Shown piece after piece: positions 413 through 62,920 of a stretch of DNA of 64,000 bases. The stretch is taken from positions 82,657-146,656 of the forward strand of contig JAUXYA010000024.1 of NCBI GenBank assembly GCA_030684405.1, in the 5' to 3' direction. Within the stretch, counting starts at the first letter, position 1, and each line of letters starts with the position of its first letter. The translations under genes were made by a program, and so were the position numbers. This stretch comes from Burkholderiales bacterium. GTDB lineage: Bacteria > Pseudomonadota > Gammaproteobacteria > Burkholderiales > SG8-41. The notes under the pieces are model-generated. The model was not told where the DNA came from. It saw only the letters and a list, made by a program, of their open reading frames with translations, and ran no database searches.

Positions 413-1219
413 ATGCCTACCGTCGACAACATCGTGGAAATCCGGGATCTCGCGTTCTCTTACGAAGCGCTTGAGATCTTCAAATCCGTCAGCCTCACCA
501 TTCCGCGCGGCAAGGTCGTCGGCATCATGGGCGCCAGCGGTAGCGGAAAATCAACGCTGCTGCGACTGATCGGTGCCCAGTTGCGCCCGGCTCGTGGCAG
601 CGTGCACGTTTTGGGAGAAAACATTCACGAACTCGACCGCAATGCGCTGTACCGGACGCGGCGCAAGATGGGCATGCAGTTCCAGCAAGGGGGGCTGTTC
701 ACCGACCTCTCGGTGTTCGAGAACATCGCATTCCCGATGCGCGAGAAGACCGATCTGCCGGAAGACATGATCAACGACCTGGTGCTGATGAAACTCAATG
801 CTGTCGGCCTGCGCGGGGCGGCGAAACTGATGCCCTCGGAATGTTCCGGCGGCATGGTGCGCCGGATAGGCCTCGCGCGCGCAATTGCGCTTGACCCCGA
901 CCTGATCATGTATGACGAGCCCTTCGCCGGCCTCGACCCGATATCCTGCAGCGTCGTCGGCAAACTGATCCGGCGCCTGAACGACGCGCTGGGTGTAACC
1001 TCGATCGTGGTGTCTTACGACGCGAAGGAAGCGCTGCGCTGTATCGACTATGTCTACTTCCTTGCCGACGGCAAGGTCGTGGCGCAGGGAACGACCGAAG
1101 AAGTGAAGAACTCCGACGATCCTTTCGTCCGCCAGTTCATCGGCGGCCTGCCCGATGGTCCTGTGCCCTTCCACTACCGCCAAAACACGTATGCCGCAGA
1201 TCTCGATCTTACGGCATAA
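413..1219 (+). CDS. Orphan MlaF-like ABC transporter ATP-binding protein (paralogue of the mlaF at 6940-7770)
   Basis: ATG at 413 (MPTVDNIVEIRDL). It has Walker A GASGSGKST, a Q-loop, signature CSGGM and Walker B LIMYDEP. More than half the positions match the canonical MlaF by eye. The H-loop reads SYD instead of THD. Confidence 0.85.
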   Translation: MPTVDNIVEIRDLAFSYEALEIFKSVSLTIPRGKVVGIMGASGSGKSTLLRLIGAQLRPARGSVHVLGENIHELDRNALYRTRRKMGMQFQQGGLFTDLSVFENIAFPMREKTDLPEDMINDLVLMKLNAVGLRGAAKLMPSECSGGMVRRIGLARAIALDPDLIMYDEPFAGLDPISCSVVGKLIRRLNDALGVTSIVVSYDAKEALRCIDYVYFLADGKVVAQGTTEEVKNSDDPFVRQFIGGLPDGPVPFHYRQNTYAADLDLTA

Positions 1220-1220
1220 T

Positions 1221-1243
1221 ATTCAATAAAAACAATTAGTTAA
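1221..1243 (+). repeat. AT-rich 23-nt motif, copy 1 (attcaatAAAAACAAttagttaa)
   Basis: Lies in the convergent intergenic gap between the orphan mlaF-like gene and murA. It shares the AAAAACAA core and flanks with six other copies. Confidence 0.8.
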
Positions 1244-1261
1244 AAAAACTTCCCGCTCCGC

Positions 1262-13081: not shown

Positions 13082-14554
13082 ATGTACTACGAACACTTCG
13101 GTCTTAGTCAGGCGCCGTTCAAGATCACCCCGAACACCGATTTCTTTTTTGGCGGCGGCAATCGCGGCCCGATCCTTGAGGCACTGATCTACGCCATCAC
13201 CCAGGGAGAGGGCATCGTCAAGGTCACCGGCGAAGTTGGCAGCGGAAAAACGATGCTCTGCAGCATGCTGCAGGCACGGCTGACCGAGCACGTGGAAACG
13301 ATCTACCTCGCGAATCCCAGCGTCTCGCCGGAAGAAATCCTCCACGCCATCGCCTTCGAACTGCAACTCGACGTGCCGCGGGATGCGACCCGGCTGGCGG
13401 TGATGCACGCGATCCAGGAACACCTGCTGAAACGCCATGCCGAAGGCAAGCGCGTGGTGCTGTTCGTCGAGGAATCACAGGGCATGCCTATTGCCACGCT
13501 CGAAGAAATCCGCCTGCTGTCGAACCTTGAGACCAAGTCCGACAAGCTGCTGCAGATCGTGCTCTTCGGCCAGCCCGAACTCGATGACAACTTGCGCGAG
13601 AACAACATTCGCCAATTGAAGGAGCGCATCACCCACAGCTTCCGGCTGGAGCCTCTGACTACGGCAGAAACCCGCGAATACCTGATGTTCCGCCTGCGTG
13701 CCGCCGGCTACCGCGGCCCGGATCTGTTCAGCGACGGCATCGTGCGCGAAATTGCGCGCATCTCCGGCGGCCTGACCCGGCGCATCAACCTGATCACCGA
13801 CAAGGCGCTGCTCGCGGCCTTTTCCGAGAACACCCACAGCATTCGCCAGAAGCATATTGATGCCGCGGTCCGCGACAGTGAATTCGCCCGGATCGAGCGC
13901 TCCGCAGCGACGGGGCCACGTTGGGCCTGGGGCGCACTGCTGGTGCTTGCCGGGATGGCGGCTGGCGCTGCCATTTTTGCGCTGCTCGACAGCAGGCACG
14001 CGACGGCGCCAGCTGTCACCGGTCCGCCCGCCACCTCCGCCACGCCACAGACCCCGCCTGCCGTGAGCCCGACGCAAGCTCAGGCAGCCCCCGAAGAGAA
14101 ACAAATAAATGATTTAAAAACAAATACTTATAAAGAGGAGGCGGCGGCGCCTGCTAACCCCGCAACGGCCACGGTAGAAGCGGTGCAGCCTGCAGCCGAA
14201 GCCCCTCGCGCGACGGGCAGCCTGCTGGAGGCACGGCTGGCGGCGACAGAAGCCTGGCTGGACAGCGCAAACCCCAAAACCCACACCATCCAGCTGATGG
14301 GTTCGAGCGACGACCAACAGCTTAACAATCACCTCAGAATTCTCTCTAATCTCGTTGAAATTAATAGTCTTTTTGTGTATCGTACTGTTGCAAAAGGTGC
14401 GCCGGCACTGAACGTGGTCTGGGGCAGTTTCGACAGCCCCGGCGAAGCCAGGGAAGCAATGGCAAAATTACCGCCGTCGCTAAAGGCTTATCGGCCGTTG
14501 CTGCGCACCGTGCAGGGGATCAAGGCTGAAGTCCGGGAACGGAAGGCGCCATGA
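13082..14554 (+). CDS. ExeA/MshM-like AAA ATPase with a C-terminal SPOR-like domain
   Basis: The N-terminus MYYEHFGLSQAPF and Walker A GEVGSGKT indicate an ExeA-type core. A TM segment and a Pro/Ala-rich linker follow. The C-terminus HTIQLMGSSDDQQL...VVWGSFDSPGEAREAMAKLP resembles DamX-type SPOR domains. Confidence 0.82.
   Translation: MYYEHFGLSQAPFKITPNTDFFFGGGNRGPILEALIYAITQGEGIVKVTGEVGSGKTMLCSMLQARLTEHVETIYLANPSVSPEEILHAIAFELQLDVPRDATRLAVMHAIQEHLLKRHAEGKRVVLFVEESQGMPIATLEEIRLLSNLETKSDKLLQIVLFGQPELDDNLRENNIRQLKERITHSFRLEPLTTAETREYLMFRLRAAGYRGPDLFSDGIVREIARISGGLTRRINLITDKALLAAFSENTHSIRQKHIDAAVRDSEFARIERSAATGPRWAWGALLVLAGMAAGAAIFALLDSRHATAPAVTGPPATSATPQTPPAVSPTQAQAAPEEKQINDLKTNTYKEEAAAPANPATATVEAVQPAAEAPRATGSLLEARLAATEAWLDSANPKTHTIQLMGSSDDQQLNNHLRILSNLVEINSLFVYRTVAKGAPALNVVWGSFDSPGEAREAMAKLPPSLKAYRPLLRTVQGIKAEVRERKAP
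14109..14131 (+). repeat. AT-rich 23-nt motif, copy 3 (atgatttAAAAACAAatacttat)
   Basis: Lies inside the linker of the ExeA-like gene, where it encodes QINDLKTNTYK using the codons ATA, TTA, ACA and ACT. Confidence 0.75.
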
Positions 14555-28542: not shown

Positions 28543-28617
28543 TCGTCGGACTTCCGTCTGCCCTATTCAGCTCTGAAAGCCGGCGCGCTGGTTGCACAGC
28601 CTCAACCAGGGTTAAAA

Positions 28618-28640
28618 TATCAATAAAAACAAGTACTTAT
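28618..28640 (+). repeat. AT-rich 23-nt motif, copy 4 (tatcaatAAAAACAAgtacttat)
   Basis: Intergenic, about 70-90 nt upstream of the sigma-54 promoter of the pilin gene. Confidence 0.8.
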
Positions 28641-28706
28641 GTCACATCTCCCAGCAATGCCCGCCCCCCCCCTGCCACGGTACGGACCCCTTGGCCCAGG
28701 ATTGAG

Positions 28707-37694: not shown

Positions 37695-38299
37695 GCAGCG
37701 ACATTCGCGAACTGCCGCTGTTTCCGTTGGGCACCGTGCTGTTTCCCGGCGGCCTGCTGCCGCTGAAGATCTTTGAGCAGCGTTATGTCGACATGACCAA
37801 GGCCTGCCTGCGCGACTCCACGCCCTTCGGCGTGTGTCTGATCAAGGAAGGTCGCGAAGTCGGCGAGCCCGCGGCACCGCATGCAGTGGGCTGCCTCGCG
37901 CAGATCGAGCAATGGGACGTGCCGCACCCGAATCTTTTCGCCGTGCTAGCGCGCGGCGGCGCGCGCTTCCGCATCCTCGGCGCCTCGGTGGGGACTAACG
38001 GACTCATCACTGGCCGCATCGAAATGCTTCCCGAACCCACTCGGCCCGAAACTGTCGACCGTGCCTGCCAGGAAGTGCTGCGTCTCGCAATCGAACGCGC
38101 CGGCGCCGACAGCGTGCCGGGACCGATACAACTCGACGATGCACTCTGGGTCAGCTACCGGCTTGCTGAAATCCTGCCGATCTCGCCGCCGGAAAAGCAG
38201 GCGTTGCTGGAAATGGATGACACCGCGGAACGGCTTGCCCAGTTGCAGGCACTGCTGCTGAGCCATGGAATCATAGAAAATATCAATAAAAACAAATAG
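37691..38299 (+). CDS. LON peptidase substrate-binding (Lon N-terminal) domain protein
   Basis: MSSDIRELPLFPLGTVLFPGGLLPLKIFEQRY is a typical LON-N start. Its ATG overlaps the rapZ stop (ATGA). Confidence 0.8.
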   Translation: MSSDIRELPLFPLGTVLFPGGLLPLKIFEQRYVDMTKACLRDSTPFGVCLIKEGREVGEPAAPHAVGCLAQIEQWDVPHPNLFAVLARGGARFRILGASVGTNGLITGRIEMLPEPTRPETVDRACQEVLRLAIERAGADSVPGPIQLDDALWVSYRLAEILPISPPEKQALLEMDDTAERLAQLQALLLSHGIIENINKNK

Positions 38300-38303
38300 T
38301 TAT
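38281..38303 (+). repeat. AT-rich 23-nt motif, copy 5 (tatcaatAAAAACAAatagttat)
   Basis: It spans the abutting stop codons of two convergent genes (TAG at 38297-38299 and TAA, read on the minus strand, at 38300-38302). Confidence 0.8.
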
Positions 38304-39001
38304 ATACTGTTCTCGGAGACGCCCCGCGGCAAGCGACGTGCCACCAGCAACTCCCGCACACGCGCTGCCGATGTCACAGCATCGAGCAGTTGCAGCGCCT
38401 CTCCACCGGCTGCATGGAGGCCTGCCTCGGTGACCACCAGATCCATCGGCAGGTCATGCGCCTGTGGAAAAATGCTCGGCACGCGGCAGGCATCGAAAGT
38501 GACGCCGATCGCGATCACGCGCCGCTCCAGTGCCGCCAGCGTGCGATCGAAATAGCCGCCGCCATAACCCAGACGATAGCCGCGTCCGTCGAAGGCATTC
38601 ATCGGTACGATCGCAAAATCAGGCAACGCCTCGGGCGTGCCGTCCGGCAGGGGAATATCGTAAACCCCGCGGGTCATCGGCGCACCGGGCCACCACTGCC
38701 GGAACCGCAGCGGCTGCCCCTTCGCCACCACTTCGGGCAGGGCTGCCTCGGCACCGGCCTCGCGCCATTGCCGCACGGCAAAACGCGCATCGAACTCCGC
38801 CTTGAACGGCCAGCAGAATCCGACAACGGCGCCGGAGGGCACCGGTATGCCCGCGGCCAGCAGCGCGGTCATCCGCTGTCCCCACTGCGCGCGTTGCCCG
38901 GCGGATACTTCGCAACGCCAGCCGATCCAGTGCGCGCGCTGCGTTTTGCGCCAGGCATTGATATCCTGCCATTCCTTCAAAGCCGGTTCGTTCATGTCCA
39001 A
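38300..39001 (-). CDS. 5-formyltetrahydrofolate cyclo-ligase family protein
   Basis: It has GYRLGYGGGYFDR and a C-terminal DLPMDLVVTE. The start is either TTG at 39001 or ATG at 38995. Confidence 0.8.
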   Translation of the reverse strand: MDMNEPALKEWQDINAWRKTQRAHWIGWRCEVSAGQRAQWGQRMTALLAAGIPVPSGAVVGFCWPFKAEFDARFAVRQWREAGAEAALPEVVAKGQPLRFRQWWPGAPMTRGVYDIPLPDGTPEALPDFAIVPMNAFDGRGYRLGYGGGYFDRTLAALERRVIAIGVTFDACRVPSIFPQAHDLPMDLVVTEAGLHAAGGEALQLLDAVTSAARVRELLVARRLPRGVSENSI

Positions 39002-42323: not shown

Positions 42324-42397
42324 TGGAGCGGGTGAAGGGAATCGAACCCTCGTATGCAGCTTGGGAAGCTGCCGTTCTGCCATTGAACTACACCCGC
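42324..42397 (-). tRNA. tRNA-Gly (anticodon CCC)
   Basis: The reverse complement GCGGGTGTAGTTCAATGGCAGAACGGCAGCTTCCCAAGCTGCATACGAGGGTTCGATTCCCTTCACCCGCTCCA folds as a cloverleaf with anticodon loop TTCCCAA and an encoded CCA end. Confidence 0.95.
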
Positions 42398-42717
42398 AAT
42401 TTCGGCCATTTTAACGGCGGAAGGAGTTGAGCGCCAAGCGGGATCGTTATGTCGGTAGCGGGTAGGGCTGTGAATACTTTCTCAAATCCCGGTCATTAGC
42501 GGTTACAGGAGATTGATGTGGCAATTATTTCCATGAAGCAGGAATTTCTCCATCTCAAAAATCAAAAGCTTCGCAGCGCTTCGTCAAATGTGCATGGGGT
42601 GAAAAGAGGCACGCGTTAAATGTGAAGTCAGGCGGCACATGTTGAAAAGCAAGAAATTTCGGCTGAAAAAAGCGGACAATAGCCGCCCAATCATTATCGA
42701 CGCCATCTGGAACCCCC

Positions 42718-44919
42718 ATGGAAATCAAGGTCAATTTTCTCGACAAGTTTCGCCTGGAGGCCAAATTCGATGATTTCACGGTGGTGGCCGATCAGCCTAT
42801 CCGCTACAAGGGTGATGGCTCGGCCCCCGGTCCGTTCGATTACTTTCTGGCTTCATCGGCTCAGTGTGCAGCTTACTTTGTGAAGTTGTACTGCGTTACG
42901 CGCAATATTCCTACCGACAACATCCGCCTGTCGCAGAATAATATTGTTGATCCGGAAAACCGCTACAAGCAGATTTTCAAGATCCAAGTCGAATTGCCGG
43001 CAGATATCTCCGCCACAGACCGCCAGGGAATTTTGCGGTCTATCGAGCGTTGCACAGTGAAAAAGGTGGTGCAGGCCGGCCCTGAGTTTGTGATTGAAGA
43101 GGTGGAAACCCTGGATGCCGATGCTCAGGCCTTGCTGATGCTGAAACCGGCTTCAGAAGCAAGTACTTATATTACGGGCAAGGATCTGCCGCTGGAGCAA
43201 ACCATCGCCAATATGTCAGGAATCCTCGCGGGCCTGGGCATGAAAATCGAAATCGCTTCGTGGCGCAATATTGTTCCCAATGTATGGTCTCTGCATATCC
43301 GCGATGCCCACTCCCCGATGTGTTTCACCAATGGCAAAGGGGCGACCAAAGAAAGCGCGCTGGCGTCTGCGTTGGGCGAGTTTATAGAGCGGCTGAGTTG
43401 CAATCATTTTTACAACGATCAGTTTTGGGGTGAAGACATTGCCAGCGCGGCGGTCGTGCATTATCCGAGCGAGCGCTGGTTCAAGCCCGGTTCTGAGGAT
43501 GCACTGCCGGCTGAAATACTCGATGAATACTGCCTGCGGATTTACAACCCCGATGGCGAGTTGCGTGGCTCGCATCTGTACGACACCAACTCCGGCAACA
43601 TAGAGCGCGGCATCTGCTCTCTGCCGTATGTGCGTCAGTCGGACGGCGAGGTGGTGTATTTCCCGTCTAACCTGATCGACAATCTGTTCCTCAGCAATGG
43701 CATGAGTGCGGGCAATACGCTGGCCGAAGCGCAAGTGCAATGCCTGTCCGAAATTTTCGAGCGGGCAGTAAAACGAGAAATTCTCGAGGGTGAAATCTCA
43801 CTCCCTGATGTGCCGCCCGAAGTGATGGCCAAATACCCCGGCATTCTGGCCGGCATTCAGGGGTTGGAGGAGCAGGGTTTTCCAGTGCTGGTGAAGGATG
43901 CGTCGCTGGGCGGGGAATTTCCAGTGATGTGCGTCACCTTGATGAATCCGCGTACGGGCGGTGTGTTCGCCTCGTTCGGATCGCACCCCAGTTTCGGGGT
44001 GGCGCTGGAACGCAGTCTTACGGAGTTGCTGCAGGGTCGCAGTTTTGAAGGTCTGAACGATTTACCCCGGCCCACCTTTGAAAGTAACGCCGTGACCGAG
44101 CCGAATAACTTTGTTGAGCACTTTATCGATTCCAGTGGCGTCGTGTCGTGGCGCTTTTTCAGCTCCAAAGCTGATTTCGATTTTGTTGAGTGGGACTTTT
44201 CTGGTCGGGGTAAAAATTCCAATGCCGAAGAAGCTGCGACCCTGTTCGGCATTCTCGAAGGCATGGGGAAAGAAGTGTATATGGCGGTGTATGAGGATTT
44301 AGGCGCAACGGCCTGCCGCATCCTGGTGCCGGGTTATTCCGAGGTGTATCCGGTAGAGGATTTGATCTGGGATAACACCAACAAAGCACTGTTGTTCCGC
44401 GCCGATATCCTGAACCTGCATCGTCTGGACGATGCCAGTCTGAAAGCATTGCTTGAACGTCTGGAAGCCAGTGATCTGGATGTTTACACGGACATCATCA
44501 CATTGATTGGCGTCGAATTTGACGAGAACACGGCCTGGGGTCAGCTAACGATTCTGGAATTGAAGCTGCTGATTAATCTCGCCTTGAAGCAATTTGAAGC
44601 AACGCAAGAGCTGGTGGAAGCCTTCCTGCAGTACAACGAAAACACGGTCGAGCGCGGATTGTTTTATCAGGCCTTGAACGTGGTGCTGGAGGTACTGCTG
44701 GACGACGATCTGGAACTGGACGATTTCGCGGTCAATTTCCGCCGGATGTTTGGCAACCCGCGAATGGACGCGGTAATGGGCTCAGTGGACGGCAGCGTGC
44801 GCTTCTTCGGCTTGACATCAACGAGCATGAAACTGGAGGGGCTCGACAGGCACCAGCGCCTGATCGACAGCTACAAAAAACTGCACGCGGTACGGGCCAA
44901 GGCAGCTTTATCCGATTGA
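42718..44919 (+). CDS. OsmC domain / YcaO domain fusion protein
   Basis: The N-terminal ~130 aa are OsmC-like (GDGSAPGPFDYFLASSAQCAAYF...ERCTVKKV). A YcaO-type domain follows (CFTNGKGATKESALASALGEFIERLS) with a helical C-terminal region. GC content is clearly lower than in the flanks. Confidence 0.85.
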   Translation: MEIKVNFLDKFRLEAKFDDFTVVADQPIRYKGDGSAPGPFDYFLASSAQCAAYFVKLYCVTRNIPTDNIRLSQNNIVDPENRYKQIFKIQVELPADISATDRQGILRSIERCTVKKVVQAGPEFVIEEVETLDADAQALLMLKPASEASTYITGKDLPLEQTIANMSGILAGLGMKIEIASWRNIVPNVWSLHIRDAHSPMCFTNGKGATKESALASALGEFIERLSCNHFYNDQFWGEDIASAAVVHYPSERWFKPGSEDALPAEILDEYCLRIYNPDGELRGSHLYDTNSGNIERGICSLPYVRQSDGEVVYFPSNLIDNLFLSNGMSAGNTLAEAQVQCLSEIFERAVKREILEGEISLPDVPPEVMAKYPGILAGIQGLEEQGFPVLVKDASLGGEFPVMCVTLMNPRTGGVFASFGSHPSFGVALERSLTELLQGRSFEGLNDLPRPTFESNAVTEPNNFVEHFIDSSGVVSWRFFSSKADFDFVEWDFSGRGKNSNAEEAATLFGILEGMGKEVYMAVYEDLGATACRILVPGYSEVYPVEDLIWDNTNKALLFRADILNLHRLDDASLKALLERLEASDLDVYTDIITLIGVEFDENTAWGQLTILELKLLINLALKQFEATQELVEAFLQYNENTVERGLFYQALNVVLEVLLDDDLELDDFAVNFRRMFGNPRMDAVMGSVDGSVRFFGLTSTSMKLEGLDRHQRLIDSYKKLHAVRAKAALSD

Positions 44920-45148
44920 CCTGGCTGTGGCGCTTCTGAACCAGATTGAATATTGTATTTTCACCTGAACGGGGGGGCTGACAGATGGCGAGCAAGCAAC
45001 ACAGCCCGGAGCAGGCAGTCGCAAAGCCGCAGCAGATTCTATGGGCGTGGGCGTCGCTTATGCCCGAGATTTGTGAAGGCGTTCACAATCCCGCCCCCCA
45101 CCGACATAACCATCCCAACACAAGGATTTACTGCCGTTTGGCGAAAGC

Positions 45149-46468
45149 TCAGGGCCGCCACAGCGGCCGCGCGGGCAAAGCGCCCTCGAGCAAAGACTGT
45201 TCGAGGAAAAAATACGCGTCGAAGTGATCCCGCGGCACGATCTCGATGCCATTCTCGAGGCCCACTGCATTGCCGTTCTGCATCCACCAGCGCGGATGCT
45301 CACCAAGAAATGGCGCCTCGGCCGTAAAAAACGCGAAGCGGTGTCCGGCATCGCGCAGCTTGCGATCCATCGAGTTCTCCGCCGTCGGCACCATCCAGTC
45401 ACCCTGGGTGCCGCTGGCGCGATAGGCCGTGAGCGCGATGTTGAATACCCGCTTCCCGCTGAGGGCGCTGAAGAAAAACACGCCGGACTTGAGATCGCCG
45501 AAGCCCCACCAGTCGGCCGGCGACCGGTTGTGTGAGACATGACTGGTATGCGCCGCCAGCAGCGCGCGCTGCACGCCATGCATTTCCATCACCAGCATCA
45601 GGTTGCGCCCCTGCGCGCGGTCGCGCTCGTTCCAGCTCAGCACATCGTCCGCCTGTTCGAGATGATAGAACCCGAGCCACCCGAGCAGGGTCGATGCCGA
45701 GATCGCCAGCTCGTAGGCATCAGTAGCGGCAGGATCACCTGATTTGCGTGAGCTCGCGCCTGCAGTCCGTGCTGTTTCCATCAGCAGCGTCAGCGCGGCC
45801 CTGCAATCTTCGTATGCGCCCTCCGGCAGGAACCGCGGACCCTGGCGGGGCTCGGGCAGCAGGCTGTCGAATTCGTCCCAGGAGCGCGCGCCGTGACCCG
45901 GACAGCGGCTCCGGATGCGAACCGCCAGTGCCGCAGAAACACCGGCCCCTGCACCCAGCCGTTCGATCCGCTCGAAATGCGCCCACGGCCGGTCCCAGAC
46001 ATCAATGCCGCGGAACATCAGCGGATCGGCTGGATGATCGCGGTTGTAGGCACAGGCCCATTCCCAGAGGTCGCGGTCGGCGGCGGTCGGCATGTACATG
46101 ACGTCCAGCGGCACCGGCGTACTCCCTTGGGTGCATGAGGCCAACCAGCGCGCCAGCTCCAGGCTGCGCAGCGTCGGGTTTTCCCAGGTGATCAGGCGCA
46201 GGCCCTGCCGGGAGACGAGGTAACGGATCAGTCGCGCCTGCACGCGCAGGAAGCCGGCCGAACCGTGGACGCTCTCGCCGATCGCCACCACGTCGGCGGC
46301 TGCGACCGCCGTCTTCAGCAGTGCATCGAGGTCGGTATCGGTCAATGCTTCGGATGCGGAACGGAGTTCGGTGACTCCCGGCAATGCTGCCCGCACGGGC
46401 AGCACCTCACACAGGCAGCAGGCAAGAACCAGCGCGGCGGCTCCGAGGCCCGGAATTCCGCCGCGCAT
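45149..46468 (-). CDS. Erythromycin esterase-like family protein with a signal peptide
   Basis: VVAIGESVHGSAGFLRVQARLIRYLV resembles the GExxHGxxEF motif of the Ere/ChaN-like family. It has an N-terminal signal peptide. Confidence 0.55.
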   Translation of the reverse strand: MRGGIPGLGAAALVLACCLCEVLPVRAALPGVTELRSASEALTDTDLDALLKTAVAAADVVAIGESVHGSAGFLRVQARLIRYLVSRQGLRLITWENPTLRSLELARWLASCTQGSTPVPLDVMYMPTAADRDLWEWACAYNRDHPADPLMFRGIDVWDRPWAHFERIERLGAGAGVSAALAVRIRSRCPGHGARSWDEFDSLLPEPRQGPRFLPEGAYEDCRAALTLLMETARTAGASSRKSGDPAATDAYELAISASTLLGWLGFYHLEQADDVLSWNERDRAQGRNLMLVMEMHGVQRALLAAHTSHVSHNRSPADWWGFGDLKSGVFFFSALSGKRVFNIALTAYRASGTQGDWMVPTAENSMDRKLRDAGHRFAFFTAEAPFLGEHPRWWMQNGNAVGLENGIEIVPRDHFDAYFFLEQSLLEGALPARPLWRP

Positions 46469-46508: not shown

Positions 46509-49493
46509 TCAGGCGCGCGACACCCGGCACAGCAGCACCTTGAGGTTGGTCTGGTCCGATATCGGATCGCGCTGGGTCTTGTCGGTGAGAAAGTTCACCG
46601 GCCGCCAGGGATTGTAAGGTTGACGCTCGCCCCAGCCGATGGGAATGAACACGGCAGTCGGACGAATGCCCGCGTGTACCCAGGCCATGGCTTCGATTTG
46701 TCCGTGCGCCGATTCGACGCACACGCGTTCTCCATCCTTGATACCCAGCTGTGCCGCCTTCTCCGGATGAATCTGGCAATAGAGGTCAGGACACATTTCC
46801 TGCGACTGCCAGAAATAATGCGTCCAGCTGTGGAAATGCGCAGCCAGCGGCCGTCCGGTGACCAGTTCGGTGTCGAAGCCCAGGGCACGCAGCTTCGCGC
46901 CGGGATGTTCGGGACCGGGAGCAATGATTTTCCCACGCGCACTGCCGGTGTTCGGCGTACAGAAGGGTGAAATCACGCCCTCCTCGGCATCGGTCTCCTG
47001 CAGTTCCATGTACGGCAGATCAACCAATTGCTCTCGTTCCGAATAGAACTCCGGCAGCGCCGACATCCCCAGAGTGTTGAATTTGGCTTCGAGTTCTTCG
47101 GTCCAGAATTCGAGTTTCCCGGACAGCGTCGGAAAACGCCGGCCTGGTGCACCGGTCGGCACGGTCGTGCCTTCGAGGTAAAGGGTTTCGATCTCCGGCG
47201 CGTCCTCGGTTGCAACGGGGATCCGCACCCAGCGGTGCGGCACCGAATGCAGGCGTTTCTGGGTGCACCCCTTCATCGCCGGGCTGTCGATGCAGACCTC
47301 GTCCCAGAACACCGCCGGATCCTTGTATCTTTCCTTCAGCACATCGTCGAAACCGAAGCGCTTGCCGAGCTCGATCCAGATCCAGGTATCGGATTTCGCC
47401 TCGCCCGGCGGATCGATCATCTTGTCGATCCACACCACGCGGCGGTCGTCGTTGGAACGGCCAATCTCGCCTTTTTCAATGCCGCTTGCCGCCGGCAGCA
47501 GGTAATCAGCATAGGCCGAGGTCTCGTTTGCGAACAGCTCGATGTGCACCATCAGGTCGAGCGCGGCAAAGGCCTCGCGCGCCTTCGCCTGTCCCGGCCA
47601 CTGCGCCAGCGGATTGTTGCAGCTGATCAGCGCGCGGATCGGATAGGGTTTGCCGTGCAGCATCGCGTCGGTCCAGCCGGCGGGACTGCGCCGCACCCGT
47701 TGCTTGTTCAGTTTCGGCGCGCGGTGTTCCGGCACCTTCGCCGCGATCGGCGTGCCGGCGCTCATGTTGAAATAAGCACCGCCGCGACGGCCCCAGTTGC
47801 CGGTAATCGCGGCGAGGAACATCAGCACGCGGTTGGTCTGGGTGCTGTTGGTGTGCTGATTGATACCGCGACTGGCAAAGATCACGCAGCCGTCAGCTGC
47901 CGCAATCTCTTCCGCCAGCTGGCGAATGTCGTTCGCTGCGAGCCCGGTGATCGGCGCCGCCCACTCCGGCGTGTACTGTTTCTGCAGAATGAAGTCGCGC
48001 CACTGCTCGAAACCCAGCAACCAGTCGGAGCAGAACTGCGCGTCATGCAAGTTGTTGGCGAGGATGTGCTGGGCCAACGCCAGACCCAGCGCCATGTCAG
48101 TGCCGGGACGGATCGGCAGCCAGCGATCAGCCTTGGAGGCCGTCGCAGTCAGACGCGGGTCGACGGCAACCAGCTTCGCGCCGTTCTTCAGTCGCCAATC
48201 GTTGATCATGCCGAAGTACACCGGCCGCGTTTCGGCCTGGTTGTCGCCCATGTAGACGTAAAGCTCGGCGGAACCGAGGTCGTTTTCGGTATAGCTGTTG
48301 CCGCTGCCGATGCTGCCCAGCGTGATTTCGAAGGCGACATTCTTGCCGCTGGCGCAGAAGGGATCGGTGCCGTCCTTGTTCGGCGTGCCGAACATCTGGG
48401 CGAACATCTTGGTCGTCGCGCGGTAGTCGAGGATACCGGTGCGCGTGCCGATAAACATCGCCAGCGCTTCGGGACCGTACTGGTCGCGGATGACTTTCAG
48501 TTTCTCCGCGATCTCGTCCAGAGCCTGGTCCCAGGAAATGCGCTCGAAGCGGCCTTCGCCGCGCGCGCCGACGCGTTTCTGCGGATACAGCAGCCGGTGT
48601 TCGCTGTGATACATCTGCAGCGTCAGCTGCGACTTGGGGCAAACACGGCCCTTTAGCAGGGGATCGTCTTCATTCCCGGTGATTTTCACTAACTTATTGT
48701 TTTTAAAGTGAAATTTAACCGTGCAGCAGTTGAAGCAGATATTGCAGCCGCCAGGCACCACACGATCCGCAGCGGTGTCTGTGCGCTCTTCGCGATAAGG
48801 AAATGCCGGCTGCTGCGCCTGCACTGCAGTCTGCGCCGCAAGTCCGTCCATGAACGAGGGACGACGCGAATGATCCGGGTGCGCGCGCGCCGGTGTCACC
48901 GCGATCATCTCGCCCACCTTCTGCGTTGTGCTGCGTTCGAGGTAGATCGTCGCCGGCCCGAGCAGGAAATGATCCTGGTCGCGCGGCGTGCGGCCCGACT
49001 GTTGCGCGTCGGCCAGCAGTTCACTGCGTTTACCGAAACGAATCGCCTGCGTCGGACAGACACTGGCGCAGGCGGTGGTCTTTTCACCCTCTGCGCGGCG
49101 ATCGACACACAGATCACACTTCACCGCGTGGTGACCTTGCGCATCGAAACCCATCGCGCTATAGGGACAGGCGATCACACATTCGCCACAGCCGGTGCAG
49201 CGCGACTCGTCGACACGGACAATACCGGTGACCGGATCCTTGCCGATCGCCTTCGGGTTCACCGGACAGGCGCGCAGGCAGGCCGGTCGCTCGCAGTGCT
49301 GGCAGGTCAGCGTCAGGAAGGCGAGGCCCGCCTGCTCCAGCTCGCTCGCCCACACTACTTTGTTGCGATACTCGCCAGGGCCGAGACGGTGCTCGGTCTT
49401 GCAGGCCGCCTCGCAGCTCTTGCAGCCGGTGCAGCGCTCAAGGTCGATCAGCAGCGCCAGGCGCTCGGAGGGTCCGGTGTTCACGCCATCCAT
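46509..49493 (-). CDS. Fusion of a 4x[4Fe-4S] ferredoxin domain (N-terminal) and a molybdopterin (Mo/W-bisPGD) oxidoreductase catalytic domain
   Basis: Four CxxCxxCxxxC(P)-type motifs appear first (CTGCKSCEAAC, CQHCERPACLRACP, CTGCGECVIACP, CDLCVDR...CASVCP). The MopB FeS0 motif CNICFNCC...RVCPKS and a candidate Cys ligand region DPFCASGK follow. There is no Tat signal. The likely start is MDGVN at 49493. Confidence 0.88.
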   Translation of the reverse strand: MDGVNTGPSERLALLIDLERCTGCKSCEAACKTEHRLGPGEYRNKVVWASELEQAGLAFLTLTCQHCERPACLRACPVNPKAIGKDPVTGIVRVDESRCTGCGECVIACPYSAMGFDAQGHHAVKCDLCVDRRAEGEKTTACASVCPTQAIRFGKRSELLADAQQSGRTPRDQDHFLLGPATIYLERSTTQKVGEMIAVTPARAHPDHSRRPSFMDGLAAQTAVQAQQPAFPYREERTDTAADRVVPGGCNICFNCCTVKFHFKNNKLVKITGNEDDPLLKGRVCPKSQLTLQMYHSEHRLLYPQKRVGARGEGRFERISWDQALDEIAEKLKVIRDQYGPEALAMFIGTRTGILDYRATTKMFAQMFGTPNKDGTDPFCASGKNVAFEITLGSIGSGNSYTENDLGSAELYVYMGDNQAETRPVYFGMINDWRLKNGAKLVAVDPRLTATASKADRWLPIRPGTDMALGLALAQHILANNLHDAQFCSDWLLGFEQWRDFILQKQYTPEWAAPITGLAANDIRQLAEEIAAADGCVIFASRGINQHTNSTQTNRVLMFLAAITGNWGRRGGAYFNMSAGTPIAAKVPEHRAPKLNKQRVRRSPAGWTDAMLHGKPYPIRALISCNNPLAQWPGQAKAREAFAALDLMVHIELFANETSAYADYLLPAASGIEKGEIGRSNDDRRVVWIDKMIDPPGEAKSDTWIWIELGKRFGFDDVLKERYKDPAVFWDEVCIDSPAMKGCTQKRLHSVPHRWVRIPVATEDAPEIETLYLEGTTVPTGAPGRRFPTLSGKLEFWTEELEAKFNTLGMSALPEFYSEREQLVDLPYMELQETDAEEGVISPFCTPNTGSARGKIIAPGPEHPGAKLRALGFDTELVTGRPLAAHFHSWTHYFWQSQEMCPDLYCQIHPEKAAQLGIKDGERVCVESAHGQIEAMAWVHAGIRPTAVFIPIGWGERQPYNPWRPVNFLTDKTQRDPISDQTNLKVLLCRVSRA
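48689..48711 (-). repeat. AT-rich 23-nt motif, copy 6 (minus strand: tcactttAAAAACAAtaagttag)
   Basis: Lies inside the molybdoenzyme gene, where it encodes KFHFKNNKLVK using the codons AAA, TTT, AAT and TTA. Confidence 0.75.
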
Positions 49494-49494
49494 T

Positions 49495-50274
49495 TCAGCC
49501 TCCCCAGGCCGTGATATGCCACCAGGTGATCGGTGCGCCGTCGGCAACATAGCCGGCGAAGAAAGTGACGGTGATCACGTGGATCACCACACCAAGCACG
49601 AAAATCCACGCCAGTGCCATGTGCAGCGGGCGCCACCAAGCCTGCTGTGCGGAGACCGCAGCACGTGTACCGAGCAGTATTGATTCTTCCCGTGCCAGGC
49701 GCCGGTAGGCCAGCGCCAGCCGCGGCGCGCGCAGGAAATGCGGCAGGTTCACCGAAAACGTGGCCTCGCTCGCCCGCGGGTCGAGTTGCGCCAGCAGAGC
49801 ACGTTTCTCCGAAATCAGCGCGCGCAAGCGTTCACGCGTCGCGGCGTCGGGAACCATGAATCGAGGGGCCTTGGAAGCGAAGGTCGCCGCCATGCGTCGC
49901 GAACCGCGCACCCGCGCCCAGATCCCGAGCGCGGCCAGTACAAGCAACGTGAGCAACAGCAGCGCGGGGGGGCGGCGCAGGAATCCGCCGGAGTGGATTG
50001 CAATCAGCACCATGCCGGCGAGCGAACAGGCCACATGTGCATTGAACCAGCCCACCGGATTACTGCCACTGCCGCCACGCTTGGCCAGCACGAAAGCCAC
50101 CGGCACCAGCAGCAGCAGCACGCCAGCGATGCCGACCAGGTAGAGCTCCGGGCTGCCCGGCGTGTGCCAGGCTTCAGGCAGGCCGCCGCGCAGCAAAAAC
50201 CAGGCGAAGGTGGCAATGACCGCCGCTGCAGTCAGCTGCAGCAGCCGGGCGTCGGGAATGTCGGGGCGTTGCAC
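49495..50274 (-). CDS. Membrane protein with two H-x13-H helices (putative di-haem cytochrome b)
   Basis: About five TM helices. HVACSLAGMVLIAIH and HMALAWIFVLGVVIH each carry two His residues 14 positions apart. Its stop lies 1 nt before the molybdoenzyme ATG. It uses a GTG start. Confidence 0.55.
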   Translation of the reverse strand: MQRPDIPDARLLQLTAAAVIATFAWFLLRGGLPEAWHTPGSPELYLVGIAGVLLLLVPVAFVLAKRGGSGSNPVGWFNAHVACSLAGMVLIAIHSGGFLRRPPALLLLTLLVLAALGIWARVRGSRRMAATFASKAPRFMVPDAATRERLRALISEKRALLAQLDPRASEATFSVNLPHFLRAPRLALAYRRLAREESILLGTRAAVSAQQAWWRPLHMALAWIFVLGVVIHVITVTFFAGYVADGAPITWWHITAWGG

Positions 50275-54472: not shown

Positions 54473-57400
54473 TTGGGGGACATTCCCGTGAACGCTCGCG
54501 CAGCCATTGATTCCGCAAACGCCGCACCGACCGAATCCACAGACGAAGGACCGGGACCGCAGTTACGCGTCATCAAGGAAGCCCTGGCGCGCAGCCAGGC
54601 CGAATACCACACCCGACTCGAAGCGGAGTCCCGCATCGCTTGGGAAACCCGTGGACACGCACAGGCCGAAGCCCGCCTGCAGGCAGAAATCAACGCACGC
54701 GAGGCCGCGCAGGCTCGTGCTGCTGCCGATGAACAGGCGGCTCTTGAGGCAGACCAGCGCCGCGCCACGGAACAGGAAGCCCTGACCCGCGCCGAAGCCC
54801 GTCGCGCCGCAGAGGCTGCAGCCGCCCATGAGGCTGCCGAACGGCTGGCGCTGGAAGAACAGCGCGCCAGCGCGGCCCGGGCCACCCTGCGCAGGGAGCA
54901 AGAAGCCCGCCGCGCCACTCTCGCCAAAACCGAACTTGAAGCGGCCGCTCATCGCCGTGCCGAAGAGGACAGCCGGCTGATCAATGAACTGCTTGCCGGC
55001 CTGCGCACTGCGGAAGCAGCGCGGGCGGCCGAACACGCCCGCTCCGAAGCCATGACGCGCGCGCGGCTGGCCGCGGAAACTGCAGCCGCTGCGGAAGCGC
55101 GCGCCCGCGCCGCCGCAGAGTCACGTGCCGAAGAGGAGGCACGCGCCAGGTCTGACGCTGAAACACGCGCCCGTGAACTCGCTGCGGAGCGTGCCGAAAC
55201 CGATGCACGCCTGCGCTTCCTCGCAGAGACCCGGATCGAGGCCGACGCCGCCTGCGCCGCCGAAGCAGAGGCACGCGCGAAAGCAGAACAGGCAGCACTC
55301 TCTGAAGCGCAGGCGCGCAACACCGCCGAAGCCCGGGCCCGTGCAGCCGCGGAAGCACGCAGCCGCATCGACCAGGAGCTCGCCGCCGCGGCACGCGCCA
55401 AGGCCGAGGAAGAACGCCTGTGCATGGTGGAAACCGAAGCGCGTGCAACGCTGATTGAGCGCGAGCGCGCCGAAATCGCCGCCCGCCGCAACGCGCAGCA
55501 GCGGGAGCAGCAGGCCATCGCTGCACGCCTTGCCGCCGAGGAGGAGTTTCGGCGGATCACGCAGGAACGCGCGGATGCGGAACTCGCGGCGCAGGAACAG
55601 TCCGAGGCGCGCGTACGCGCCGAAAGCCGGGCTTCCCAAGCCGCGCGGACACGCGCCGGGGCCGATGCGGCGGCGGCAACAGCCGCCGAGGCACGGCATG
55701 CCGCAGAAAACGAGGCGGCAAGGCTTGCCGAAGCGCGCGCCGAACTGGATCGCCTGACCGCGGAAGTCACCGCATCACGCAACGAGGCGCTGGCCCGCAC
55801 CGCGGCTGCCGCCGAGGCCCGGCTCGCAGCGGAGGCCGAAGCCCGCGCCGAAGCGGAAGCGCGAGCGGCAATGGACATCGAAGCCGAACGCGCGGCGCAG
55901 GCGGCCGCCCATGCCGACCGTCTCGCGCAGCAGGCCGCACTCGCGCTGCAACAGGCCGCGGTCGCCGCCGAGGGGGCAGCGCGGCTGCGTGCTACGGAAG
56001 AACACCAGGCCACGCTCGCCGAGGAAGCGCGTGAGCGTGCCGAACGAAAAGCCGCAGACGAGGCGACGGCACGGCGTGTTGCAGAGGAACAGGCCCACGC
56101 TGATGCGGAACGCCGCGCAGCACTGGATGCGGCCGCAAGACAGGAAGCGGAAATCCGCGACCAGGCGGAAAAGGCCGCGCAGCAGGCGGCCCACGAACGC
56201 ATCGCCGCTGAGCAGCAGGCACGCAACTCGGCCGAACTGCGAGCGCGTCGCGAAGCCGAGCGTTGCGCTGCCGCACTGGTGCGTGCGGATGCCGAGCGCA
56301 AAGCGAGCGAGCAGCTTGCCACCGAAACCCGGCTGGACGCCGCTGCGGCTGCAGCGGCACGCGAACATGCCGAACGCCTGGAGGCCGCTGCAGAGGCGCT
56401 GGCAGAACGCGAAGCTGCGGAACGGCAGGCTACTGAAGCCGCACGCGCGCGCGCAGCCCGCGAATCGGAACTGGCGGCAACTGCACAGGAAAAAATGCGG
56501 ACGGAACAGGCACTGGCCAAAACTCTTGCCGCCCGCCTGGAAAACGAAGCTGCGGCAAACCGCGCTGCGGACGAACGGCGGCGCGTCGAAGCCGGGGCTG
56601 CGAAAGCAGCAGCGGACCGGGCCGCGGCAGAAAAACAGTGTGCTCAAAACGCGCTGGAGCGCAGTGATGCGGACAGTCTGGCCGCCGAGCAGGCGCGCGA
56701 GGCCGCGGTTGCCGAAGCAGCGGCCGGCCGGGCCGCGCACGAGCGGATAGCGGCGGAGGCCGCCGTACTTGCGGCGACCCGGCAACGGCAGCAGGCCGAG
56801 ACCGATGCCGCGGACGCCGCAGGCCGGCGCGTCGAAGCGGAACAGGCACTGACGGAGCAATGCGCCGCAGCCGCTGCTGCGGCCCGCGCGGCCACCCACA
56901 AAAGACAAACCGGGCAGCAGCGCACCCGCGCCGCATCCATCGCCCGCCGTTATGCGGAGCAGGCGCTGGCAGAAGCACAGTCACGGCTCGCCGCCGCCGA
57001 TCTTGCGGCCGCAACCGCGGCACGCCGCAAGGAAATGGCAGTGCAGGAGCAGTCCCGTCTGGCGGAGACCGCGCGGATCGCCGCGGAACAGGCGGCGGCA
57101 GATGCAGAGACAGCCCAGAAGCTGGCGGGAGAATCACGTGCCGCTGCCGCAGAGCAGCAGGCCGCAGCCGCGGCACGGCTTGCAGCCGAACGTTCGGCCG
57201 TGGCGGCACTGCGCGAACGCGCTGCAGCCGATGCGCGCCGTGCGGCGGCTGCAGCCGAACTCGCGGCGGCGGCCCAGGCACGTCAGGCCGTGCTGGCGGA
57301 AGAAGCAGCCCTGCTCGAAACACTGGGTGCAAGGGAGAGCGCCGTCGTCATCGCCACGGCCGATGCCAATTCGGCACGACAGGCGCGGTTGCTCGCCGAA

Positions 57401-57889
57401 GGGGAAAACGCAGCGCTGGCCGCCGAACGCCTCGAAACCGAACAACGCGCGGCGGATGCCGCGCAGAGACGCTGCAACGACGAGTATGCGGCCGTCAATG
57501 CCGCCCGCGTTCGTGCCGAAGCGGAAGCTGCTGCAGCCACCGCGGCGCAGCAACGTGCGATCGCCGAGCGCGACGCGGCAGAACGCGCGTGGACAGCCGC
57601 CGCGCAAAACCGGACTTGCACCAGGGCGCTGCGCCGTGCAGGACGCAGAGCAGCGCTGGCAAAGGCATTGCGCCACCCGGCGCCGAGCTGGGCCATCGCC
57701 GCCTCATTTGCCGCCTGGGCCGTGTTCTCGGGCTGGGCGCCCGCCACGCTGCCTGCTGCCGCACCGCAGGCAGCAGCGGCATTGCAGATCGCCGCGATCT
57801 ATCCGGCAGGAGATGACACGGGCATCAGCCTGAAGTTCGACATGCTGGGCGCCAGCAACTCGCCACAGGCCGGCATCGCGCAGCCCTGA
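54473..57889 (+). CDS. Very large Ala/Glu/Arg/Gln-rich predicted alpha-helical protein with a single C-terminal hydrophobic segment
   Basis: This 3.4 kb frame stays open and is dominated by GCN/GAR/CGN codons (G in first position). The other long ORFs here read as Ser/Ala/Arg or Pro/Arg shadow frames. The start is TTG at 54473 or GTG at 54488. The C-terminus is [22 protein letters not shown]. Confidence 0.6.
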
Positions 57890-61092: not shown

Positions 61093-62277
61093 TCACGGCA
61101 GGAACATTGCCAGCAGATCGTTCAGGAAACGGCGCCCGAGCGGAGTCGGCCGGACGCTTAGGTGGTCACGCATCAGCAGGCCGCGCGCCTCGGCCTGGTC
61201 AAGTACGGGCAGCACAGGGGTCAGGTCCAGCCCCGTCCTATCGGCAAACAGGGACAATTCGAAGCCATCGTTCAGCCGCAGGGCATTCATCATGAATTCA
61301 CCTGGCAGCTCCACAGCACTGAGCTCGCGCTGCTCGCTGAGCGCAGAACCGGCGGCAACCTGCGTCAGGTAGGCCTTCGGCTGCCTCGCACAGGAATAAC
61401 GCAATATATTGTTTTTAAATGATATTTTTCCATGCGCTCCAGCGCCGATACCGAGATAGTCGCCGAAGGTCCAGTAATTCAGGTTGTGCCGGGCCGGCAG
61501 GCCCGGACGGGCAAATGCGGAAATTTCATAATGCCCGTAACCGGCATCGGCGAGCCGCGTTTCCACCGCAGCCTGCATCGCTGCTGCCGCATCGTCGTCG
61601 GGCACAGCGGGCGGATAGCGGTGGAAATACGTGTTGGGTTCGATGGTCAGGTGATAGGCACTGACATGCTGGGGCGCCAGTGCAATCACCGCCGCAATGT
61701 CGGCTTCGGCTTCTTCCTGCGTCTGTCCGGGCAGGCCGTACATCAGGTCGAGGTTGACGTTGTCGAAAGTGGCCAGCGCCAATTCCGCGGCGCGGCGCGC
61801 TTCGCCGGCATCGTGGATGCGTCCGAGCGCATGCAGGTGGCGGTCGTTCAAGCTCTGGATACCCAGCGACAGGCGGTTCACGCCGGCGGCACGGAAACCC
61901 CTGAATTTTTCAGCTTCGACGGTGCCCGGATTCGCCTCGAGCGTAATCTCGGCATCCGCCGCCAGCGGCAAACGGGCCCGCACGCCAGACAGCAGCGCAT
62001 CCAGCGCGGATACTGACAGCAGGCTCGGCGTGCCGCCGCCAATGAACACCGTCAGCACCGGACGCCCCCAGACCTGAGGCAGTGTGAACTCCAGATCGGA
62101 GAGCAGCGCGGCCACGTATTCATCCTCGGGCAGCGTGCCGCGGGCTTCATGGGAATTGAAATCGCAGTACGGGCATTTGCGCACGCACCAGGGCACGTGA
62201 ATGTACAGCGACAACGGCGGCAGGACAGAAAACTGCAGCGGTGAGTGCGGAGTGATAAGTGATGAGCCTGAAGGCAC
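61093..62277 (-). CDS. hemW: Radical SAM family haem chaperone HemW (HemN-like)
   Basis: It has LSLYIHVPWCVRKCPYCDFNS. A GTG at 62277 lies just after the rdgB stop. The ORF track start at 62349 would overlap rdgB. Confidence 0.9.
   Translation of the reverse strand: MPSGSSLITPHSPLQFSVLPPLSLYIHVPWCVRKCPYCDFNSHEARGTLPEDEYVAALLSDLEFTLPQVWGRPVLTVFIGGGTPSLLSVSALDALLSGVRARLPLAADAEITLEANPGTVEAEKFRGFRAAGVNRLSLGIQSLNDRHLHALGRIHDAGEARRAAELALATFDNVNLDLMYGLPGQTQEEAEADIAAVIALAPQHVSAYHLTIEPNTYFHRYPPAVPDDDAAAAMQAAVETRLADAGYGHYEISAFARPGLPARHNLNYWTFGDYLGIGAGAHGKISFKNNILRYSCARQPKAYLTQVAAGSALSEQRELSAVELPGEFMMNALRLNDGFELSLFADRTGLDLTPVLPVLDQAEARGLLMRDHLSVRPTPLGRRFLNDLLAMFLP
61401..61423 (-). repeat. AT-rich 23-nt motif, copy 7 (minus strand: atcatttAAAAACAAtatattgc)
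   Basis: Lies inside hemW, where it encodes GKISFKNNILRY using the codons GGA, AAA, ATA, TCA, TTT, AAT, ATA and TTG. Confidence 0.75.
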
Positions 62278-62293
62278 GGCGCTGCCCGGAGTG

Positions 62294-62920
62294 TCAGTCC
62301 TGCGGGAGTTCACGAAGGCGCTGCACCAGCATGGCGAGGGCCCGGCCACGGTGGCTCAAGGCGTTTTTTTCTTCCGGCTCTAGCTCGGCACCGGTCCTGC
62401 CGAGTTCCGGAATCAGGAACAGCGGATCGTAGCCGAAGCCGCCGTTGCCGCGCGGTGCCTCGAGGATCTCGCCATGCCACTCTGCCTCGGCGATCAGCGG
62501 CTGCGGATCATCGGCATGGCGCACCACGACGATGACACAGCAGTAATGGGCGCCGCGGTCATCCGCATCGGCCAGCGCCTGCAGCAGCATCTCGTTGTTC
62601 AGGCGGTCCTGGGTTTCGCGATCGACTGCACCCGCTGCCCTGGCATAACGCGCTGAATGCACGCCGGGCTCGCCGCCCAGCGCGTGCACGCAGACGCCGG
62701 AATCGTCGGCCAGCGCCGGCAGGCCGGTGAGGCGGCTGGCATGCCGCGCCTTGGCCAGCGCGTTCTCGACGAAGGTGCCGTGCGGTTCCTCCGCCTCCGG
62801 CACACCGAGGGCGCCCTGCGGCAGGACCTCGATCCGCAGCGGCGCCAGGATCGCAGCGATCTCGCGCAGCTTGCCAGGATTGTTGGAGGCGATGACGAGT
62901 TTGTTCAAGGACAACACCAC
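62294..62920 (-). CDS. rdgB: dITP/XTP pyrophosphatase
   Basis: It has KLVIASNNPGKLRE and ADDSGVCVHALGGEPGVHSARYA. The true start is probably GTG at 62920 or TTG at 62908. The longer ORF N-terminus reads through a repeat element. Confidence 0.9.
   Translation of the reverse strand: MVLSLNKLVIASNNPGKLREIAAILAPLRIEVLPQGALGVPEAEEPHGTFVENALAKARHASRLTGLPALADDSGVCVHALGGEPGVHSARYARAAGAVDRETQDRLNNEMLLQALADADDRGAHYCCVIVVVRHADDPQPLIAEAEWHGEILEAPRGNGGFGYDPLFLIPELGRTGAELEPEEKNALSHRGRALAMLVQRLRELPQD

Follow-up and report, generated by a model that had tools for sequence, protein, structure and literature searches.

Why should conserved genes of a GC-rich bacterium carry, in different reading frames, the same short run of AT-rich codons? 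The question is posed by 64,000 nucleotides of Burkholderiales DNA at 63% GC (assembly GCA_030684405.1, contig JAUXYA010000024.1, positions 82,657 to 146,656), a stretch that, at its full length, we call the window. An original prediction, made from the letters of this DNA, had noticed such runs in a molybdoenzyme gene, in hemW and in an exeA-like gene, and had proposed that the conserved object is the DNA and not a peptide. We find that the runs belong to a repeat family that is restricted to one lineage, holds its positions between genomes, is constrained at synonymous sites in the molybdoenzyme gene, and matches in register the elements of a binding site for integration host factor (IHF). 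From this match we infer that the binder is IHF and the role architectural, and we put the chances about even that the motif is an IHF-type (DNABII) bend site amplified in the lineage to serve in that way.

The window holds exactly seven copies of the motif, as judged from a position-weight scan, a list of all its AT-rich islands and anchoring on AAAAACA. Their anchors lie at 1229, 5595, 14117, 28626 and 38289 on the plus strand and at 48703 and 61415 on the minus strand, and the copies are as follows.

1213..1247, plus strand: copy 1, position-weight match 48.2/30.3, sequence CATAATATTCAATAAAAACAATTAGTTAAAAA
5579..5613, plus strand: copy 2, position-weight match, antisense in the first codons of mlaC (4996-5613, minus strand)
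14101..14135, plus strand: copy 3, position-weight match, on the sense strand of an mshM/exeA-like gene (13082-14554), in a Pro/Ala-rich linker
28610..28644, plus strand: copy 4, position-weight match 45.9/32.7, between genes, with a sigma54-type promoter (28707-28722) about 80 bp downstream
38273..38307, plus strand: copy 5, position-weight match 51.3/28.6, overlapping the 3′ end of a Lon-N-domain protein gene
48685..48719, minus strand: copy 6, on the sense strand of a fused iron-sulfur (FeS)/molybdenum-bis(pyranopterin guanine dinucleotide) enzyme gene (46509-49550, minus strand)
61397..61431, minus strand: copy 7, position-weight match, on the sense strand of hemW (61093-62349, minus strand)

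The scan was scored against two backgrounds, and the AT-rich one gave about 5 false hits per 195. A first null, made of reversed sequences, was replaced; it was inflated, since a GC-rich background lets any AT-rich island score. The 11-mer TTGTTTTTAAA occurs three times in the window against 0.12 expected, and none of 100 shuffles reaches three. Column counts over 75 independent GC-rich instances describe an asymmetric element of about 35 bp, AT-rich from about -9 to +27, with the consensus AAAAAT-TCAAT-AAAAACAA-WTAS-TTA-T; for the copies in the window the fourth of these blocks reads ATAC.

Copies outside genes often fill a very short spacer completely. Copy 1 occupies the 42-bp spacer between a convergent ABC-ATPase gene (stop TAA 1217-1219) and murA (stop 1262-1264), and its orthologue, with the core AATCAAatatTTA, lies at the murA 3′ end in locus L201. 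Copy 5 covers the last codons and the stop (38297-38299) of the Lon-N-domain protein gene (37451-38299, plus strand; domain from Pfam) and abuts the stop of a convergent 5-formyltetrahydrofolate cyclo-ligase gene (38300-39001, minus strand), leaving zero spacer between the two open reading frames (ORFs). Its ATAGAAAATATCAATAAAAACAAnTAGTTA is retained at the syntenic position in more than 15 loci of the clade described below, with diverging flanks. The promoter downstream of copy 4, TGGTACggactTTGCA, has one mismatch to the sigma54 type and stands 48 nt upstream of the ATG of a pilin gene at 28770.

Four of the seven copies lie within genes, in three different frames or orientations, and are read as FKNN (twice), LKTNTY and, antisense, KYxFLL. 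Three of them had been listed in the original prediction, and the sequences, codons and peptides that it gave are present: cac ttt aaa aac aat aag tta g within KFHFKNNKLVK at 48689-48711 on the minus strand, GKISFKNNILRY at 61401-61423 on the same strand, and QINDLKTNTYK at 14109-14131 on the plus strand, one nucleotide out of phase. The fourth, at 5579-5613 and antisense to mlaC, had been missed. Codons of the surrounding genes do not end "almost exclusively" in G or C, as had been said, their G+C content at third codon positions (GC3) being 0.72-0.77; the sharp local anomaly of AT-rich codons is real. In sliding windows of ten codons, GC3 at the motif is the lowest of the gene in two of the three hosts (0/10 and 1/10). 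In the molybdoenzyme it is 3/10, joint lowest with the N-terminus, and there the anomaly becomes unambiguous only in an alignment of 22 sequences (0.21 versus 0.77).

The molybdoenzyme is encoded by the ORF at 46509-49550 on the minus strand (1013 amino acids; 4Fe-4S dicluster, Molybdop_Fe4S4, Molybdopterin and Molydop_binding domains). In it a PsrB/NrfC-like 4Fe-4S module (residues ~30-185) and a PsrA-like catalytic subunit (best Protein Data Bank match 2vpw) are joined in one chain, and the same fusion is found in Nitrospinota and alphaproteobacterial metagenome-assembled genomes (MAGs) at 61-70% identity. Copy 6 supplies the codons TTT CAC TTT AAA AAC AAT AAG TTA GTG AAA (F-H-F-K-N-N-K-L-V-K). 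It had been placed in a conserved beta-hairpin between the cysteines of the FeS0 cluster. By sequence it does fall between cysteines three and four of the 4Fe-4S motif at the N-terminus (CNICFNCC...VCPK); the segment is probably a beta-hairpin or beta-turn, as judged from homology to PsrA (2vpw), where it aligns to GIVAHAVGNRVYKVEG, with the turn residues GD/GN replaced by NN.

A genome scan with the molybdoenzyme as protein query returned 80 loci. The closest clade consists of uncultured "Burkholderiales" MAGs from freshwater and activated sludge, with molybdoenzymes of about 83-96% identity. Their DNA at the motif reads TTT AAA AAC AAY AAG TTA, synonymous positions included, whereas distant orthologues of equal GC have TTC AAG GGC GAC/GAG .. 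CTG, that is FKGD or FQGD, in proteins of the same length. In some lineages the motif has decayed by a single base, to AAAGACAA in loci L005 and L009 and to AAGAACAA in L028.

We aligned the codons of the 22 motif-bearing clade sequences, leaving out decayed and partial loci. In this alignment the motif is the stretch of lowest GC3 in the gene, at the 0.21 given above against a gene mean of 0.77, and with a codon entropy of 0.28-0.35 versus 0.80 it is among the least variable stretches synonymously. AAA, TTT and AAC are each fixed in all 22 sequences, and leucine is written TTA in 19 of 22, compared with 10 of 1391 conserved leucine codons elsewhere. The codon under the degenerate position of the motif varies freely (AAT in 12, AAC in 10). 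Synonymous constraint rises and falls with the motif's information content, a sign of purifying selection since the copy arose.

A similar picture is seen in hemW, whose product is a radical-SAM/HemN_C protein. The codons of copy 7, AAA ATA TCA TTT AAA AAC AAT ATA TTG (K-I-S-F-K-N-N-I-L), recur in the clade as AAA ATA TCR TTT AAA AAC AAT ATA TTA (KISFKNNIL). Outgroups of similar GC have AAG ATC AGY TTC CCC/GCG GAT CGC ATC CTG instead (FPDRIL, FADRIT or FQDRIV), so that under the motif a PDR or QDR turn has become KNN. In both enzymes the clade keeps AT-rich codons, and outsiders use GC-rich ones together with a different turn (FKGD, FPDR). The molybdoenzyme and HemW have the same length as their motif-free orthologues, which bears out the statement that the host proteins stay full length. 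The copies therefore arose by GC-to-AT point substitutions, not by insertion.

The gene hosting copy 3 encodes an AAA_22 protein of the ExeA/MshM type. Its codons GAT TTA AAA ACA AAT ACT TAT (D-L-K-T-N-T-Y) are those read one nucleotide out of phase with copies 6 and 7. Of the 120 homologues listed, 118 retain the peptide island xK[TS]N[TS]Y, down to about 60% identity; it is the sole conserved piece of an otherwise unalignable, hypervariable Pro/Ala linker. It is often SIKTNTY, the exact translation of TCA ATA AAA ACA AAT ACT TAT, and the DNA motif is present at the orthologous position in loci L201-L204. A second AT-rich patch in mshM, TTGAAATTAATAGTCTTTTTGTG at 14355-14377, encodes EINSLFV within a conserved domain; L201-L204 likewise retain its AT-rich codons, and the patch does not match the motif. 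A gene for a sigma54 activator (11645-13078) precedes mshM.

Copy 2 is read antisense. Its complement forms the first codons of mlaC, ATG TAT AAG TAT ATG TTT TTA TTG ACT TTT (MYKYMFLLTF), and supplies the n- and h-regions of the MlaC signal peptide. Orthologous copies lie within the mlaC 5′ end, likewise antisense, in L201, L202 and L203; L204 has a similar peptide in GC-richer codons and no match to the motif. The mshM, mlaC and murA 3′ copies are kept in genomes whose MshM proteins are only 64-74% identical.

Within genes one and the same DNA serves in three frames or orientations, and elsewhere it lies mostly between genes; the conserved object is therefore DNA, not peptide. On this point the original prediction was right, and the codons of the orthologues agree with it. 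The comparisons support the view that selection maintains the element at the DNA level. High copy number, restriction to a lineage and a mostly intergenic location would also be expected of a micro-repeat that is selfish or neutral, one that brings its host no advantage and multiplies by transposition or by gene conversion among its copies. Conversion has an attraction here: the molybdoenzyme copy needed about eight directional GC-to-AT changes, all of which one conversion patch could deliver. We nevertheless consider such an origin very unlikely. The element has no terminal inverted repeats and no hairpin; target duplications were not evident in the copies that were read, no systematic search having been made; and the coding copies bring no change of length relative to motif-free orthologues. 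Copies decay by single substitutions, as in L005 and L009, they hold their positions across the distances just described, and their synonymous constraint follows the information content of the motif.

How widely is the element distributed? A metagenome scan with the 20-mer pattern TCAATAAAAACAANTANTTA found it at no fewer than 120 loci, and about 75 among the matches listed are on contigs of 54-66% GC, in unrelated gene contexts. Its density is 1.27 per 10 kb in the clade loci (65 matches in 512 kb), 0.06 per 10 kb in other GC-rich loci of betaproteobacterial type (2 in 308 kb) and 0.05 per 10 kb in the remaining loci (3 in 660 kb). The element is a dispersed, lineage-wide repeat. Some 95% of the position-weight matches (126 of 133) are intergenic or at a gene edge, and 7 of 133 are coding. 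No earlier description of it was found in the literature with the exact motif string, its complement or broader keywords. No Rfam family matches at any copy in the window, and a BLAST comparison of the 32-mer consensus with plasmids returned only chance matches in AT-rich taxa.

This distribution bears on the idea that the coding copies act in RNA or in translation, as a rare-codon ribosome pause (for FeS insertion, for instance) or as an AU-rich RNase E or Hfq site. In favour of it, the sense strand carries three of the four coding copies, and with them rare TTA, ATA and AAT codons just after cluster cysteines. A signal of this kind is highly improbable, however, given that about 95% of the family is intergenic, in either orientation relative to the neighbouring genes, that the mlaC copy is antisense and that frames differ between copies. 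To this is added the lack of an Rfam family and of structure at the copies. Six of the seven window copies show no secondary structure (minimum free energy 0 to -1.1 kcal/mol, z about 0), and copy 6 alone folds, through flanks of its own. That copy is flanked by an inverted repeat, TTTCAC...GTGAAA (48680-48724, minus strand; codons F-H and V-K), which is not found in every clade member; the hairpin has -5.1 kcal/mol and z = -2.55.

The genes flanking the copies are arranged ++ in 18 cases, -- in 19, +- in 13 and -+ in 8. The motif is not linked to promoters or terminators, and its orientation is independent of transcription. A sigma70 promoter was also considered and set aside: only the hemW copy gives a match, a weak one (9/12), the molybdoenzyme copy gives none, and orientation is random with respect to genes.

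Within the window the orientations run +++++--, and GC skew changes or flattens after 42 kb, as might be expected of a replication-polar motif such as a Ter-like fork trap or a KOPS- or Chi-like signal. Neighbouring copies share an orientation in 30 of 45 pairs, a weak effect in the same direction. Over 105 copies, however, orientation shows no association with local GC or AT skew (45 positive versus 60 negative, P=0.17), the window's AT-rich islands include no dif-like sequence, and the single-switch pattern is broken by the next copy to the left in the same genome. This copy, in the hisF|hisI spacer (L205, 10105-10140), lies about 5.9 kb left of window position 1 and is inverted relative to copy 1. 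We regard a replication-polar function as extremely improbable. The results for location, arrangement, skew, lineage and structure also led us to exclude a REP/BIME palindrome, a miniature inverted-repeat transposable element, the polar motifs KOPS, Chi and Ter, and a signal at the mRNA or codon level.

What, then, might recognize the DNA? A canonical IHF site has WATCAA or WATCAR near its centre and TTR four bases downstream (PMC1874591; bioRxiv 10.1101/382655). Prolines of IHF intercalate at two AA steps 9 bp apart (PMC1874591), and strong sites, which span about 34 bp, carry a tract of 4-6 A in the 5′ half (PMC1874591; bioRxiv 10.1101/382655). We counted these elements over 133 family members. 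The core letters are W in 100%, A in 92%, C in 94%, A in 99% and R in 93%, and at position 3 A (81%) prevails over T (18%). After a gap of exactly four bases on the 3′ side of the core comes TT in 128 of 133 (96%) and R in 131 of 133 (98%). An AA/TT step stands 9 bp upstream of the CAA step in 124 of 133 (93%). The A-tract is present in 70 of 133 (53%) and in four of the seven window copies, and by column counts A is enriched from -7 to -4. In register, 112 of 133 members fit WA.CAR-N4-TTR; with the pattern shifted by 1 to 4 bases in either direction, none of the 133 does. When the letters of the 35-mer are permuted, all four elements come together in only 0.29% of cases. The exact AATCAA-N4-TTA occurs in 24 of 133 members, in several sister-lineage copies at orthologous positions and in the hisF|hisI copy, whose core is the canonical IHF sequence AATCAAatacTTA. 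The AT-rich span from -9 to +27 corresponds to the 34-35 bp length of an IHF site.

The motif is thus laid out like a canonical IHF site of the lambda attP H′ type: about 34-35 bp, asymmetric, with an A-tract in the 5′ half, kink steps 9 bp apart, and core and TTR in the same register, some members matching the consensus exactly; we take the lambda H′ 35-mer to share this register. It differs in having mostly A for T at core position 3 and extra conserved positions, and in being amplified as a near-identical repeat in one lineage, with no preference for promoters or recombination sites; binding by IHF is here putative.

Several points weigh against identifying the motif as an IHF-type site. 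All seven window copies have A in place of the canonical T at core position 3. Conservation extends to positions beyond what IHF of E. coli needs (TC at -7/-6, WTAS in the N4 spacer), which could point to another protein, in place of IHF or beside it, or to common descent. All proteobacteria have IHF, yet relatives of the same GC lack the repeat, so that IHF alone does not explain the amplification. The family is not enriched beside sigma54 promoters, the classic context for IHF: copy 4 lies upstream of a good one, but 18 such associations were observed where 13 were expected. The source organisms are uncultured MAGs, in which these would be putative IHF sites.

Some of these points would suit a site for another DNA-binding protein, either a lineage-specific factor or a nucleoid protein of the H-NS/MvaT or Fis type, with the likeness to IHF a by-product of AT-richness and A-tracts. 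The repeat is lineage-restricted and IHF is not, more positions are conserved than IHF requires, and the window copies carry A, not T, at core position 3. We think this unlikely all the same, as the four elements occur in register, which so few permutations achieve, and both the family and this genome include variants with the canonical WATCAA-N4-TTR. The motif also lacks the G/C ends of Fis sites, and proteins of the H-NS type as a rule cover long stretches of AT-rich DNA and not single islands of 35 bp.

Another candidate function is that of a DNA uptake signal, like the DUS of Neisseria or the USS of Pasteurellaceae, spread by point mutation through biased uptake in natural transformation. 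There is much in common. Like these, the motif is short, dispersed and lineage-specific, and it is found in either orientation irrespective of genes or skew. Its positions are stable, and where genes have acquired it they did so through point substitutions, in particular frames and in segments that tolerate them, with frame-dependent peptides. Its variants differ between lineages in the manner of "dialects", and genes for type IV (MSHA-type) pili are present. USS positions, moreover, are evolutionarily stable and evenly spaced, with phased AT tracts. DUS and USS, however, occur about once per kb, and a large fraction of USS lies in coding sequence, whereas the motif, at ~1.3 per 10 kb, is roughly ten times sparser and only about 5% of its copies (7 of 133) are in coding sequence. 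It has no short G/C-containing core, and its length and internal register fit IHF, an architecture found in neither DUS nor USS. A role in uptake therefore appears distinctly unlikely to us.

If we return to the IHF-type bend site, its anatomy from 5′ to 3′, that of a complete site of high affinity, would be an A-tract; an AA/TT step 9 bp before CAA, the two marking the kinks made by proline intercalation; W-A-(A/T)-C-A-R; four bases; and TTR. The IHF heterodimer, which bends its canonical sites by about 160 degrees, would bind each copy and fold the DNA into a U-turn, and a stiff GC-rich chromosome would thereby gain fixed bend points roughly every 8-10 kb. Most sites would be accommodated in short intergenic spacers. 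Those within genes would have been built by GC-to-AT point substitutions, leaving protein length unchanged, in segments that tolerate them: a beta-turn (FxGD/FPDR to FKNN), a disordered linker (SIKTNTY/DLKTNTY) and a signal peptide (KYxFLL, antisense).

The spacing of the copies speaks to this model. The seven in the window are more evenly spaced than random (gaps 4.4-14.5 kb, coefficient of variation 0.35, P about 0.01 by simulation, post hoc), and the hisF|hisI copy, 7.1 kb from copy 1, lies at a distance that fits. That even spacing is a post hoc result from a single window weighs, in turn, against the model. The strongest form of the idea is that the copies make up a positionally selected lattice of IHF-type bend sites about 8-10 kb apart, a code for chromosome folding or supercoil domains that overrides codon usage and even amino acids in conserved proteins. 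The overridden segments would be the FeS-domain hairpin of the molybdoenzyme, HemW, the MlaC signal peptide and the MshM linker. We hold this stronger form to be rather doubtful.

Dispersed repeats with an IHF site and DNA sites inside genes both have precedents. The BIME-1/RIP (RIB) elements of E. coli are dispersed extragenic repeats that carry an IHF site. They resemble the motif in their hundreds of dispersed copies in spacers within and between operons, in their IHF-type site and in a proposed architectural or topological role. BIMEs have GC-rich REP palindromes and are strictly extragenic, whereas the motif has no palindrome, is AT-rich in a GC-rich genome and also occurs in coding sequence. 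Chromosomal sites for DNA-binding proteins are known inside genes as well: parS in spo0J, matS, and Ter in E. coli genes. There too a DNA site is superimposed on coding sequence and constrains the codons. Such sites number only a few in a genome, are confined to particular regions and are either palindromic or replication-polar; the motif is genome-wide and non-polar. BIMEs have been put forward as candidate domain barriers (PMC6907758).

Two other features of the window stand apart from the motif. A tRNA gene (42327-42397, minus strand) adjoins its sole low-GC stretch (54-58%, within 42327-46468), which carries an OsmC-YcaO fusion gene (42718-44919) and an erythromycin-esterase-like gene (45149-46468) and may be an acquired island. 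At 54473-57889 there is an ORF of 1138 amino acids in a stretch of 70% GC with strong AT skew (+0.32 to +0.37); an identical gene on another contig has no Pfam match on record.

Dispersed sites for nucleoid proteins and DNA motifs superimposed on genes are kinds of element already known. What is new here is the motif as a lineage-wide family of IHF-like sites, the fourth coding copy, the depth of positional conservation and the measured synonymous constraint. If our interpretation is correct, this lineage would have sequence-defined, countable sites for a nucleoid protein, with positions conserved between species. It would then offer one place in which to test what sets the boundaries of bacterial topological domains and how strongly non-coding functions constrain coding DNA. 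The recoded beta-turns, linker and signal peptide would show that selection for a DNA site at the level of the chromosome can prevail over codon bias and leave its mark on protein sequence. On this interpretation, islands of conserved peptide, SIKTNTY in MshM linkers and the FKNN turns among them, can arise as a consequence of a DNA motif, and it would be a mistake to treat them as functional protein motifs.

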